Shown piece by piece: positions 3,001-12,000 of a stretch of 64,000 bases of DNA. Made by a program: the position numbers. Positions within the stretch are counted from its first letter, which is position 1. Each line of letters opens with the position of its first letter. The stretch lies in assembly GCF_057098645.1 (NCBI RefSeq), contig NZ_CM169472.1, one strand, 5' to 3'.

Positions 3001-6000
3001 GGCGGTGCTTTTGCCGTTACGCACCACCCCGTCAGTAGCTGAACAGGAGGGACAGCTGATAGAAACAGAAGCCACTGGAGCACCTCAAAAACACCATCAT
3101 ACACTAAATCAGTAAGTTGGCAGCATCACCTCTTTAAGCATGCCATTAATATTTCTGCAATGCTCAACTGCGCTATTGTAAACATTTTTAACTTCATCAT
3201 TTGTTTCACGAAGCATTTTTACTGTTGTCGGTAGATTCTCGGCTGCATCATATGCTTCATTTATAGTTTTAATTTTCTCTTCTATATTACCAGTTTCAGC
3301 TGCAATTGCAGATATACCTGAATTATATAATTCTAATCTGCGTAAAATTTGCTTTGGTAATAAATTTCTATCTTTCAGCCTCTCAAATGAAAAAAGGTCA
3401 TTAATCCTATGAGAGATATATAACATTGAAATAACATAAGATGGTATAGCGGTCTGTTGAACTGATGCGTTACCATTGTTTATATGATTAATATTTTGCT
3501 GAGCATGATCCAGAGTGTAAATGAGCGCATCAATTACTGCAATGTCATCTGAAGATGGTACAAATTCCTGCATCTGATTAATTCTATCAGATAACATTTT
3601 TGGTAGTTCTATCAGATCCTCTTTATGTAAAAAAGGAAATGTGTACGGCCCAAGGTTTATAAAATCTTCCACAGGGAATACAAGACCATTAAGTGTTGTA
3701 TGTAAATTATCTAGTTTCTCTTTTAATTCAGTTAGTTTTTCGTTCATTAAAAAAATCCTTTATGACGCTATAGAACTTCCAGAGTAATCCGATAAAGATA
3801 TCATAAGACAATATTTTGGTATAAACACTTATTGCGCGCGCTCGTATCCCCGCCACGCCTGCCCGCTTTATGTAGTGGTTTTCATGCACCTGCATGATCT
3901 ACGCAAAAGCCCGCCAGAACTGGCGGGCCTTAACACAAAAGATCCTCAAACGATCATGCGATCTCATGCAGCATAGACATGCGCGCTTATGCAGAATGTG
4001 CAAAATCGTAACATACTCAGTAAGCGTGAAAACTAGAACGTGACAGCCTTGTCAAAGCCAGAAATAATTGTATAAGAAATAGACGAGTTATCAGCCTTGT
4101 TCACTTTGAACTTGGCACCTTTGTAAGCGATAACGTCACTTCCCTTAGAATCTACAGAAAAATCTGTTGTAAATGCTGCACGAGCCATATCGTTTGCAAA
4201 TTCACGATAGGTGAACTTCATTACACCGCCTGCATTTCCATTGTATTCGATAGTCTTAACCAATGAGTTACTAACTCGACACAGCCCATCAGGAACACGT
4301 TTGATAGAAATTTCTGATGCAGTATAAGAAGTACCATTTGGCGGTGATATCTCATTTTTTGCAGCATCGTAACTAACATAATCAACATAGTTACCGATTT
4401 GCCCATAGAGATTTTTTAACGCAACAGCTTGAGGGTTATGATAATTGCGGTAAATTCCATTCCCCTCACTGCAATATGTACCAGCAGCGATAGAAGACAA
4501 TGCACCATTAGCCGCACCAAGTTCTAGTACGTCCGTTTTAAATCCAGTAGCAGATGTGATAATGGGATCGCCCATGTAGGCGGTAGCACTTTGCCCAATA
4601 GCAGGCTTCACCACTTCAATAGCAGTGATATTTCGGTTAGAAGCATGTGGCACGCAACCAGTTAGGATTACAGCAAGAGATATTGGTAACGCTACATTAT
4701 TAATTTTCATTTTTAGCCTATTATTCTTTTCTTGACAAAAAACAAGGCGATATCCGATTGACATCGCCTCTCACTCATATGTAACCCTTTTTGATTAGTA
4801 AAAACAAGCGTCTATTGACAAAATCAATGCAGCCAGCTGTCGTCTTCCCACACCTTCTGCATAATTTTCATCACTTGTTTTCTTTCTTCGTCCAGTTGCA
4901 GTCCGGTCAGTTCCACACCGTTAGAGCTACCTTTACGGATACGGATTACCGTTTTGGGATACAGGGGGCGCAGATTGCGGTAAAGCTCGGATTCAAGGGC
5001 GTCCAGGGTAGACTGGCTAATCTTCTGCTCTTTATCGATCATTATTTCAATGCGCATAAAAGTCACCTCAGCTGATGACATCCATTGAGCGGTTGTATTC
5101 GTGGCTTCTGATTTTTGCCATGAGTTCATCAGTCAATTCAGAAACCCACTGCAGAGCCAGCCCCTTCTCTTCATCACTACACTCACTAGCCGCTACAAGC
5201 TTAAGAAAAAAATCAATGCGCTGGAGCTTCAAAGACTCCAAAAAATAGTCCTGCATCTTTCCTCCTATGACACCACAAGAAATACTGTATGTATAACCAC
5301 TGTTTATATTTACAGTATATAATAATCTTACTGATGTAAAACGTTTTTTTTACGCTTATCAGCTTGATATGCCTGGTATTATTAAGAGCACGAATTGTTA
5401 ACCAGCGTAATTAATACAGGTTCCGCCACTTATCATCTTCCTGCAAACGCTGGTTCCGATAGAAGATACGCAGGCCTGCTCCTGACGGAATACTGCCGCC
5501 GCGAAGGAGTAAATCGACCTCTTTCTCGCTGCCATCAAATCCTCTGGATTTCAGTTCATAGACGAGCTGCTGTCGTTGATGGTCTGTAATTCGCTGTTTG
5601 TAGTCTCTACGCCGTTTCGGTTTCACCAGACGTAACCTTGCAGCCAGTTCCCGGCGCTCCTTTTTGTTCATACTGTGCAGGTAATCGTGCAACTCCTTGT
5701 CATCCATGCGGGTAAAGTCCGTTCTGGGGTCCCCATCAGCTGATTTATCTTTCTCCTGTTGGTTCAAATTTTCAGCAAGGGGACAGTTATTGCCACGAGT
5801 CCAAGGGGCGCAAGCGCCCTGGTCGGCTGCCGCCTCCTGAACGTCAACGGCCTTACGAACCATTTTCCACTTCACTGCATGAGTACAAATCTTGCCCTCT
5901 GCAATGGGTGACCAGATGCCATAAATACGAATACCGTGATCGCCATAGGCGGTCGGCTCTTCGTTAATTTCATAAGCTGTTCTGATAAGGTGATATTTGC

Positions 6001-9000: not shown

Positions 9001-12000
9001 TGAGCGTGTGGAAGGTTTCATTACGGATGCGGGCAAGAAGCCATCGTTCAACGATGAGGACGCCGTTTTCTGCTTTTGGTTTATCTTTAGGTTTGCGTGG
9101 TCGGGCCGGGATGATAACCGTGCCATAGTGCTCAGCCAGTGCCTGATAACTGTCGTTGATGACAGGCTCATATCGATCGGCCTTTTTCACTGCGCTTCTG
9201 AGGTTATCGGGGATGAGCAGCTTCGGTACGCCGCCCAGGAAGGTCAGGCAACGGCTGTGGGCATTTAACCATGACATCATGTCCTGACCTTCGCACGCTT
9301 CAACGTAGGTATAGTTGGACGCCCCCATTACGGCCACGAAGATTGCCACGCGGCGTATCTCACCGGTGTCCGGATTAATAACAGGAACCGTAGGACCACA
9401 GAAGTCGATAAAAAGCTTTTCGCCGGCACGATGCTCCTGGCGCATGGAGAGACGTCGCGTTTTTTTCCACTCCCGGTAGCAACGGCAGAAGTGCGAGTAT
9501 CCCATCGCTTTGTTACCCGCCTGTGCCTTGTATTCCATCCACAACAGTTGCCGCGTCACACCTGGTTTTCTCATTTCCGTATCGAAGTACAACATGTCAG
9601 GCATTACAAGCTCTGATGCAAAGGTGTCTTTGGGCGGAAAAATGAGTTTCTCCAGCGTGTCATGGGATATATCAGCAGGTAATGGCCATGACAGAGAAGA
9701 GGCTTTGAAGCGGGCAAGAACCTCAAAAACGGTTGAGGCGCTGATGTGTAACGTCAGTCCGATACAACGGTTAGTCAGCTTCTTGTCGAACTTGAGCTGA
9801 AGGATCTTAAAACAGGTTTCCATAGTGCTCCTGGATTTTCTCTTTCTGGACATTGACGTCTCCACTGGTTTAAACACGGCAATGGAGACTGTGGTGAAAA
9901 GAGTTAATTCCCGGAGTGACTGGCAGGATGCCAATCAATGATCGGAAGCATGCCAAATCGTGATCGATTGTGATGCCAAACTGTGATCGGAGATGGATGC
10001 CAAATCATGATCGATTCGAATGCCAAACTGCGATCGATTCAGATGCCATTTTGCACCTTTGGCCTGCCCAGGCTGCTGAAGTATTCAATACGTTGCATCA
10101 GCGGCTTGCTGATATGGGAAGGCTGGGCGTTGACGTCCGCCAGAATGACCATGTCTGAATTAAAACGCTGCTGCTCATGCGCCAGCTTTGCCCGGCTAAT
10201 GAGCTTATCCTGCTCCATTTCGCGCTGGACAGGATCACGTGATTCATTAAAGAAATAACGCTCCCAGACCTGATCACTCAGTGCCTCGCGGCGCAACTGT
10301 TCCTGCTCGTTATCGGCAGCGTACAGAGTGATCAGGTTTGAAAGCGTAGAAACCGGCGCAACTTCCGCCGGGTCCAGATAAGGGTTAATGGCCTTTTTCG
10401 GGCTGTTCCATGAGAACGCTGCGGCAGCCTCGTTAAAGCCGCAGCAGTTGTTCATATCGGCATGACTCATGCACGTACTCCGTACACGGCAGAACTATCC
10501 ACGCCACGCGAATAATCAAATCCCATCCAGCAGCGCGGCCCGGAAACAGCAATGATTTCTGTTGCTGATTTACCCTCGCCAGCTGCCACACCGATGCTGC
10601 GTTTTACCTTGATATAGTGGTGAGTAAAATTGCGATACAGCGAACGGATCAGGGATGTGTCACTGTTAGAAACAATGACCGGATGTCCTTCTGATGACCG
10701 ATGTTCAAGAACGGATGCCAGGTGATACTGGTCATCTTCAGTGAAACCATCAGTGTGATAGCCGGAAAACGTACCGTCATACGGCGGATCGCAATACACC
10801 ACATCTCCCGCCTTCAACATCGCCAGCGTTTCATCAAAGCTGGCGCAGATAAACGTTGCTCGCTGGGCCTTTTCTGCAAATGCGCGAATTTCTTTTTCAG
10901 GGAAATACGGATTTTTATAATTACCGTAGGGAATGTTGAAATGCCCGCTCTTGTTATAGCGACATAAACCACGGTAACCGTGACGATTGAGATACAGGAA
11001 ATATACCGCTTTCATGAAATCAGTAATTTCAGTTGAGTAATTAAACTCCTGCCTTATGTTGTAATAAGCCACCTCCCTGTTTGCGATCTCAAATAAAACT
11101 CTGGCGCGAGATATAAACGATTCACAATCAGCGGCAACCTTTTTATAGAGGTTGATTAAATCAGGATTAATATCCGCAACCAGATAGCTGGGATAATCCG
11201 TCTCCATCATCACAGCACAGGACCCCGCGAAAGGTTCAACCAGTCGCGGGCCAGCAGGAAGATGTTTTTTCAGTTCGGACATAATGGCGGTTTTATTTCC
11301 CGCCCATTTCAGGATGGTGCTCATACAACACCTCCGTTGTAATGTTTGCCTTTCAGCTCTGCGATTTCCTGACAGGTAATGCAAAGCTGCACACCCGGAA
11401 TGGCGCGGCGGCGTGCTGGCGGAATTGGCGCTTCACATTCAATACAAAGCACGCGAGACACGCCCGGTGTTTTGGCACGGGCAGCACGGATATGGCGCTG
11501 GCGTTCTTCTTCAACGCGCTGCTGTACGAGATCCATTGCATCAGCCATTAGTGGATCTCCTGCGCTTCGCTCTGGATTGCTTCAGCAGTCACACGCAGCA
11601 GTTCTGCTGCTTCGACGTGGTTTAGCTGGCGGGATGTGATATGACACGCCAGGCTATCAAGGCGAGCTGCCATTGCTTCAGCCCTTGCCCGGCGTTCTTC
11701 CAGACGAGCCTCTGTCAGTAAAATATTAAGCCCTGCGTCATCCGGTCCGGTTTTAGTCGTGAGGATTTCAATATTACGCATAATCAATTCTCCTGAATTT
11801 AGATAAAGGGATGCCCGGCGGGTTTACGCCATTAATTTCATTAGTTGGTTAATTCGGCATGGTTAGCCGTCTGGGAAATAAGCTCACCACTGCACGAAAA
11901 TGATTCATTGCTTTAATCAACTCCCGCTTTTCGTCAGTGGTCAGCTCATTAATGCTGGTGCTATGACGTTCAGCTGGAATTTTTGCCATAAAGAATATGG

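Follow-up and report, generated by a model that had tools for sequence, protein, structure and literature searches.

IS21-family interruption of the replication initiator gene A in a P2-like Escherichia coli prophage

The replication gene A of a P2-like prophage in the E. coli chromosome is split between codons 138 and 139 by an intact IS21-family element. We consider it highly likely that transposition of this element split the gene for gpA, left the prophage with no functional initiator, and made it replication-defective, with the loss of normal phage yields. The gene lies in the window, by which we mean the whole stretch of 64,000 nucleotides of contig NZ_CM169472.1 that was analysed, and its features are collected in Table 1. 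Four points were established directly: how the gene is split, that excision restores it exactly, which element was inserted, and that the neighbouring genes are intact. Loss of a prophage replication gene to an IS is an ordinary event; prophages are commonly damaged in this way, and such damage is well understood and already known.

Table 1. Coordinates of the interrupted gene A, the inserted element and adjacent features in the window
Feature	Position	Strand	Basis or remark
Gene A	10470 to 5411	-	P2-like prophage in E. coli chromosome; NZ_CM169472.1 window
dam-like DNA adenine methylase gene, upstream of gene A	10467..11324	-	PF02086
Gene A 5' part, codons 1-138	10057..10470	-	ORF and tblastn
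Upstream ORF, 143 aa	10039..10470	-	ORF call
Target-site duplication copy CCTTTG, gene A upstream side	10056..10061	.	Repeat and IS-copy comparison
IS21-family element, intact, 2,639 bp	7417..10055	-	Oriented as gene A; ends defined by 5 other E. coli copies
istA, IS21-family transposase, 511 aa	8288..9823	-	NF033546; RefSeq annotation of identical copies
istB, IS21 helper AAA+ ATPase, 251 aa	7516..8271	-	NF038214, PF01695
Target-site duplication copy CCTTTG, gene A downstream side	7411..7416	.	Repeat and IS-copy comparison
IS / gene A insertion junction sequence, CAGGCCAAAGGTGCAAAATGGCATC
Gene A 3' part, codon 139 to stop	5411..7416	-	ORFs, tblastn, domain search, alignment
Longest ORF in gene A 3' part, 635 aa, from Met170	5411..7318	-	ORF call
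Ori-like sequence inside gene A, GCGCCCCTTGGACTCGTGGCAATAACTGT (minus-strand reading)	5783..5811	-	Alignment with P2 and 186 ori regions

The split gene and its in silico repair

An earlier note on this DNA had proposed that two minus-strand ORFs, of 143 and 635 aa, belong to a single gene of about 804 codons. Both ORFs are present as it described them. Residues 1-138 of gpA from the E. coli HS prophage are found by tblastn at 100% identity over the 5' part of the gene, and the 143-aa ORF consists of these 138 residues followed by five IS-encoded residues, VQNGI, and a stop. The A-derived 3' part starts at junction 7416, upstream of the ATG at 7318 that opens the 635-aa ORF, and it holds the entire Pfam Phage_GPA domain, the HUH motif HHDGTVHWH and the tyrosine motif YIAKYISK. 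Excision of 2,645 nt, comprising the IS and one CCTTTG copy, yields a single continuous ORF of 2,415 nt (804 codons) with the protein junction that the note had given. A single nucleotide in 2,415 separates the repaired gene from the intact HS allele, giving M414 where HS has T. Across residues 1-804 the repaired product shares 98.9% identity with the gpA of phage Cartapus, so the repaired frame aligns from end to end with intact homologues and the single-gene claim holds. The description of the duplication had to be corrected: it was given as cctt(t), 4-5 bp, and is in fact the 6-bp CCTTTG.

The repaired protein matches Phage_GPA (PF05840) at 425.3 bits (cut-off 31.4) over residues 188-510, covering profile positions 1-321 of 321. 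Its HHDGTVHWH motif and its tyrosine motif (a YxxxY pair) align with the same motifs in gpA of P2 and 186, and we take the P2 tyrosine pair, following the P2 literature, to be the catalytic residues. Within the gene, an ori-like sequence (…GCGCCCCTTGGACTCG…CAATAACTGT) stands at the aligned position of the annotated P2 and 186 nick sites; the correspondence is one of similarity only, and the site is a putative counterpart of the P2/186 nick-site regions. Among NCBIfam profiles we found no family for the 804-aa repaired protein, and a sequence search against solved structures returned nothing meaningful (top match Fis, E = 0.17).

The same 804-codon gene occurs uninterrupted in the HS prophage, where it is annotated as 'replication endonuclease' (WP_000017485.1; NC_009800.1 922050-924464). 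The nearest phage relative alongside HS is gpA of Cartapus (CAH1234778.1; Peduoviridae, Elveevirus), whose gene is likewise uninterrupted; Cartapus is a prophage that yields encapsidated genomes (PMC9928086). Gene A has the same neighbours in HS and Cartapus as here: dam overlaps it at ATGA on the upstream side, while a 62-aa ORF and a DinI-like gene follow it downstream. The prophage site differs, being hchA here and next to rcdA in HS. The gpA proteins of P2 (NP_046795.1, 761 aa) and 186 (NP_052289.1, 694 aa) are HUH rolling-circle initiators with their ori inside their own gene, and share with the repaired protein the Phage_GPA domain, the EPHHDGTxHWH and Y(I/V) tyrosine motifs, and a position in the early lytic operon. 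P2 gpA is only about 31% identical to the repaired protein, over residues 72-681, and relative to both P2 and 186 the repaired protein has a longer N-terminal extension and a different C-terminal tail. The gene upstream of A also differs, being a dam methylase gene here, orf83 in P2 and orf84 in 186.

The inserted element

The element has the IS21 gene layout, in which istA, encoding a DDE transposase whose core is of the rve type, precedes istB on one strand. IstA exceeds the cut-off of NCBIfam NF033546 (284.7 bits against 160) and contains rve and Mu-transposase C-terminal domains, while IstB matches NF038214 at 257.8 bits (cut-off 200) and PF01695 at E = 2.4e-60; the earlier description of a 2.64-kb IS21-family element is thus borne out. 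Its ends are TGCAAAATGG...GGAATACGCA, and five other E. coli copies, which differ from this one by 0-1 nt, stop at exactly these bases and are likewise 2,639 bp long. The termini read 5'-TG...CA-3', as in the IS21 family, and both ends bear repeated GATGCCAAA..GATCG motifs. Terminal repeats occupy 7429-7479 and 9927-10037 (direct families D1, D2 and D10; inverted pairs I2, I5-I8 and I10). IS21-family elements are about 2-2.7 kb long and produce short direct target duplications of 4-8 bp, and both the length and the 6-bp duplication here fall within these ranges. At other copies of this IS, 3-7 flanking bases are identical.

RefSeq labels on matching copies read 'IS21 family transposase' for istA and 'IS21-like element ISSso4 family helper ATPase IstB' for istB, and the name 'IS21-like element ISSso4 family' is taken solely from this IstB family label. 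Compared with ISSso4-type IS21 elements of E. coli and Shigella, which have the same ends and short flanking repeats of variable length, the present copy differs in its insertion site alone. A literature search on ISSso4 found no description of the element's ends or target duplication. Many E. coli genomes contain copies that are 100% identical, with as many as 34 sites in a single genome, and together with the intact ORFs these multi-copy relatives suggest that the element belongs to an actively transposing lineage.

Expression of the two halves and prophage replication

In the sequence of events that we favour, an active IS21-family element would have transposed into codon 138/139 of gene A, the rolling-circle replication initiator gene of a P2/186-type prophage whose nearest relatives are the HS prophage and Cartapus, and would have duplicated 6 bp of target. 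The 143-aa N-terminal stub would still be made from the early lytic operon, coupled to dam: the dam stop overlaps the gene A start (ATGA), an arrangement that suggests translational coupling, and the Dam product is 100% identical to HS Dam. The 3' fragment would still contain the complete catalytic domain together with the origin, yet be cut off from its promoter context and from translational coupling, with no start before Met170. Without a functional initiator, a derepressed prophage would be unable to nick its origin, rolling-circle replication would not begin, and normal phage yields would not be expected.

Several observations bear on whether the 3' fragment is expressed. Within the IS end, 8 codons upstream of the junction, the frame is closed by a stop, no start codon was found between that stop and Met170, and we detected no Shine-Dalgarno match in the sequence read before ATG 7318 (TCTTTTCGCTTT). 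A promoter scan of 7200-10600 returned no site able to drive the downstream fragment, and its five terminator-like matches all fall within the IS and on the plus strand. Nor is the fragment any longer coupled to dam, which lies upstream. Because the fragment is without a start before Met170, a recognisable ribosome-binding site, a promoter-like site and coupling to dam, the prophage is very probably replication-defective. In the P2 and 186 reference records, A appears as an essential origin-nicking replication protein with ori inside the gene, and the earlier expectation of a probable replication defect is sound on these two grounds, the essentiality of A in P2 and 186 and a fragment that has no visible means of expression. 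With the IS following codon 138, the prophage no longer has an intact, expressible gpA-family gene, and we regard loss of gpA function as very probable on sequence grounds.

Two features of the split point the other way. The 635-aa ORF retains the full Phage_GPA domain, the HUH motif and both tyrosines, and the IS and gene A share an orientation, so that read-through from istAB could transcribe the fragment. It is therefore conceivable, though very unlikely, that the fragment is made by such read-through and initiation at Met170, keeps its nicking-joining activity, and lets the prophage replicate, perhaps weakly. The missing N-terminal segment of about 170 residues is the least conserved part of the gpA family (PSP3-type proteins align only from residue 182), which would favour such residual activity, but residues 72-170 align with P2 gpA and the missing segment is thus partly conserved. 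Against it too stand the absent start codon, Shine-Dalgarno-like sequence and promoter-like site, and the lost upstream coupling: the 186 record states that A translation requires translation to the end of orf84. A literature search on cis action of P2 gpA yielded no citable statement. We give hardly any credence to a second alternative, in which the interruption is an assembly artefact that misplaced an IS copy in a gene that is truly intact. The multi-copy nature of this IS in some E. coli genomes would allow such an error, and the insertion is known here from the assembly alone and is absent from all other complete genomes. However, exact IS ends at both junctions, a perfect 6-bp direct duplication, and restoration of the gene to the nucleotide upon IS removal argue for transposition rather than a repeat mis-join.

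Prophage setting, distribution and the question of domestication

The window contains the prophage from int to terminase only, and from 15713 to 1 it is collinear with the HS prophage at 99.0-99.95% identity, two IS aside. Its genes follow a P2/186-like order (int, cI, apl/cox, cII, ..., A, cargo, and portal/terminase on the opposite strand), with int and apl intact. Products of 14 of the 15 other complete prophage genes in the window are identical to those of the HS prophage, and the remaining one, the portal, differs by 1 residue. The second IS is an IS1 within a cargo gene of 463 aa. A LexA box is found upstream of the DinI/Tum-like gene, and for this reason an intact version of the prophage would probably be SOS-inducible and costly.

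The uninterrupted gene A site is present in about 1,220 of 5,426 complete E. coli genomes, and this IS insertion in gene A is found in none of the 5,426. The chimeric 143-aa product likewise has no exact match in a large assembly collection. The insertion event looks recent and strain-specific, and its junction could serve as a unique marker in strain typing. Damage to gene A is seen elsewhere: among 1,288 genomes with the gene, about 70 do not reach 80% coverage of it in one place, and BL21-RIPL retains just 46% of gene A in its P2-like prophage. Other damaged P2-like prophages mostly carry deletions or truncations, whereas here both halves are kept and the damage can be undone completely in silico. 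In annotation, the two ORFs are best treated as a single pseudogene (gpA, replication endonuclease) broken by an IS21-family element, and the prophage should be scored as very probably non-replicating though nearly every gene in view is intact. The lesson for prophage-prediction pipelines is that one IS can be enough to leave a 'complete-looking' prophage dead.

The earlier note had seen progressive domestication in the two insertions, a claim that finds no support beyond the two IS themselves given how closely the other gene products match those of HS. In its fuller form, the proposal is that inactivation was selected, with the host keeping immunity, cargo and SOS-linked early genes while escaping lytic killing. 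Two independent insertions in one prophage, the integrity of the remaining genes, and the probable cost of an SOS-inducible intact prophage would all fit, but we judge this unlikely. No observation separates selection from neutral IS traffic, the insertion recurs in none of the 5,426 genomes and its IS copy is identical to others, the same IS sits in prophage genes (tape measure, terminase, capsid) of several other strains, and the IS1 struck a cargo gene, although cargo is just what domestication should preserve. An adaptive variant, in which the stub or a weakly expressed catalytic fragment hinders the initiators of incoming related P2-like phages, or in which the split stops SOS killing, strikes us as highly improbable. 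Both IS copies look recent, the IS21-family one showing 0 differences when compared with copies elsewhere, and the pattern would look like two recent, possibly neutral, IS insertions, with neither gradual decay nor selection indicated.

The IS1-disrupted 463-aa gene and its 225-aa neighbour have no convincing family in PADLOC, Pfam or NCBIfam, the best signals for the pair being a weak JetC-like match (E = 6e-4) and DUF4126 below cut-off. A Shigella origin, which the IS1 and the ISSso4 name might suggest, need not be invoked, since the prophage flank matches E. coli O145:H28 at 100% identity and the prophage next to it is of EHEC type.

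Gene A is split by an IS21-family element

Removal in silico of the IS21-family element inside gene A, the replication initiator gene of a P2/186-type prophage (minus strand, 10470 to 5411), together with one copy of its hexamer target duplication (2,645 nt in all), yields a single 2,415-nt ORF of 804 codons, which reads ...SLGRPK/AYSRYL... across the repaired junction, as the earlier note had predicted. Compared with the 'replication endonuclease' gene in the near-identical prophage of E. coli HS, also 2,415 nt long and uninterrupted, the repaired gene has one nucleotide difference, at position 1241 (Met414 in the repaired gene, Thr in HS). 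Its product is 98.9% identical over residues 1-804 to the 'replication endonuclease gpA' of Escherichia phage Cartapus and about 31% identical to P2 gpA over residues 72-681, and residues 188-510 match the Pfam Phage_GPA profile at 425 bits. The note had named non-alignment of the repaired frame as the outcome that would speak against a single split gene; on checking, the frame aligns end to end with its HS and Cartapus homologues, and thus the 143-aa and 635-aa ORFs are one gene.

The larger ORF of the element, istA, encodes integrase-core (rve) and Mu-transposase C-terminal domains and is recognised by the NCBIfam model 'IS21 family transposase' at 284.7 bits (cut-off 160). For the smaller ORF, istB, the NCBIfam model 'IS21-like element helper ATPase IstB' gives 257.8 bits (cut-off 200), and Pfam IstB_IS21 gives E = 2.4e-60. 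By megablast against 5,426 complete E. coli genomes, 100%-identical copies occur on chromosomes and plasmids, in up to 34 places per genome, with istA annotated as 'IS21 family transposase' and istB as 'IS21-like element ISSso4 family helper ATPase IstB'. To set the boundaries, five E. coli copies were compared together with their flanks. All start with TGCAAAATGG, end with GGAATACGCA and span 2,639 bp, and the copy studied here differs from them at 0 or 1 positions; these common ends place the element as tabulated. The ends carry reiterated terminal motifs typical of the IS21 family. Bordering the element is a 6-bp direct duplication, CCTTTG (7411-7416 and 10056-10061), and the other copies are flanked by 3 to 7 identical bases, apparent target duplications. 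The size first estimated, 2.64 kb, therefore holds, and a direct duplication is present, but its original reading as 'cctt(t)' missed one or two bases. In other E. coli strains, identical copies lie within prophage genes for the terminase large subunit, tail tape measure and major capsid (NZ_CP104509.1 is among these records), and one adjoins a phage polarity suppression protein gene.

Features of the interrupted prophage
Feature	Coordinates	Strand	Size	Remarks
143-aa ORF	10470 to 10039	minus	143 aa	upstream of the two IS ORFs
IS21-family element	7417..10055		2,639 bp	boundaries from five other E. coli copies
istA	9823 to 8288		511 aa	
istB	8271 to 7516		251 aa	
635-aa ORF	7318 to 5411	minus	635 aa	other side of the two IS ORFs
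LexA box	5300-5315			CTGTTTATATTTACAG; perfect consensus match
DinI-like ORF	5256 to 4827			
225-aa ORF	4036-4710		225 aa	adjoins IS1-disrupted gene
IS1-disrupted gene	about 1583-3747	minus	463 aa	
IS1	2363..3130		768 bp	9-bp duplication CTCTTTAAG

Consequences for the replication initiator

Alignment of gpA with its P2 (761 aa) and 186 (694 aa) counterparts reveals a conserved EPHHDGTxHWH (HUH) motif and a second motif beginning Y(I/V), at residues about 437-446 and 498-509, and the DNA near codon 675 resembles the annotated nick-site regions of P2 and 186. The insertion follows codon 138, 5' of the Pfam domain, the conserved motifs and the nick-site-like segment. What remains upstream is a stub of 138 aa plus VQNGI that keeps its ATGA overlap with dam, and the end of the IS places an in-frame stop ahead of the downstream fragment. 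That fragment has no ATG, GTG or TTG ahead of Met170 and no Shine-Dalgarno-like sequence 5' of the Met170 ATG, and no promoter-like sites were found across 7200-10600. According to the 186 reference record, A translation appears to require that the upstream gene be translated to its end, and a terminator acts if A is untranslated; the P2 and 186 records describe A as an essential, origin-nicking protein. As far as the sequence can tell, the downstream fragment would have no visible route to expression, and the evidence best fits a null allele of the replication initiator gene, which would leave the prophage unable to replicate after derepression. P2 gpA has a preference for acting in cis, and efficient rescue of the prophage by a co-resident relative would therefore not be expected. 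The core interpretation of the earlier note is right, and the corrections to it are minor.

Cartapus is a prophage of strain LF82 whose encapsidated genomes have been detected by virome sequencing and qPCR, at a low yield of 3.3x10^5 per mL (PMC9928086). Since a phage with so similar a gpA yields encapsidated genomes, the intact allele is, judging by this relative, that of a working phage. The LexA box lies upstream of a 62-aa ORF and the DinI-like ORF, a layout similar to the annotated LexA-controlled p95-tum arrangement of phage 186, and this resemblance suggests that the prophage is probably SOS-inducible. The bare LexA pattern has 3 matches in the window against 0.72 expected, and the case for this box rests on position, not statistics.

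Allele frequency and the question of domestication

The uninterrupted allele that the earlier note proposed to seek in related genomes is common: a probe of 285 nt that spans the repaired junction detects it in 1,220 of the 5,426 complete E. coli genomes (gene family in 1,288; at least 80% of the gene in one place in 1,219). A 3,571-nt probe over both IS junctions recovers the insertion in none of them at coverage of at least 80%, and the chimeric 143-aa product has no record in a large assembly collection. These frequencies mark the insertion as peculiar to this genome, and presumably recent, in a prophage gene that is otherwise common.

From 15713 down to 1, the window is collinear with the HS prophage at 99.0-99.95% identity, broken by two extra blocks, the IS21-family element and IS1. 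The prophage passes the window start within the terminase ATPase gene, and assessment thus covers the int-to-portal part. Here the proteins of 14 other complete genes are identical to those of HS (int, CI, apl-like, CII, Fil, DUF5347, DUF2732, TraR/DksA, Dam, the 62-aa, DinI-like and 225-aa ORFs and two small ORFs), and portal differs by one residue. The IS1-disrupted gene and the 225-aa ORF sit between the DinI-like and portal genes, a position equivalent to that of the cargo genes tin and old in the P2 reference record; neither has a convincing PADLOC, Pfam or NCBIfam family (a JetC-like match is weak, E = 6e-4).

Progressive domestication, which the earlier note read from the two insertions, does not follow from these data. 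Two IS insertions in the same prophage would fit an early stage of decay, and adaptive inactivation is possible but unsupported. Set against the HS proteins, the visible genes show no lesions from point mutation, the IS21-family copy is identical to copies elsewhere, its insertion is unique among the genomes searched, and IS1 struck a cargo gene and not a lytic function; none of this points to selection or a progressive process, and the same element's presence in tape measure, terminase and major capsid genes of other strains does not point to selection either. Prophage genes are routinely disrupted by IS elements, and each component described here is already known and has been annotated elsewhere at 99-100% identity.

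Chromosomal context

On the chromosomal side, sequence from 15691 matches E. coli O145:H28 at 100% identity. This flank starts within hchA and overlaps the prophage end by about 23 bp (15691-15713, AAATGACCGTTTTGTTATCTCCC), within hchA as annotated in O145:H28. In HS, the near-identical prophage lies between rcdA and ybjL, yet its integrase is 100% identical to the one here; one integrase thus occurs at two separate chromosomal positions. The intergenic stretch from an 89-aa ORF to int has one base more than in HS, located between about 15248 and 15305 (5,658 bases of the window to 5,657 of HS in the alignment), with identical proteins on either side. Collinearity with the O145:H28 RM9872 chromosome stops at 25733, close to the effector genes nleF/nleH/nleC. 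An EHEC-type lambdoid prophage occupies the window from about 26.7 kb and is 99.3% identical to a prophage region in O103:H2 and O145:H28 strains, where that region contains IS3- and IS66-family elements.
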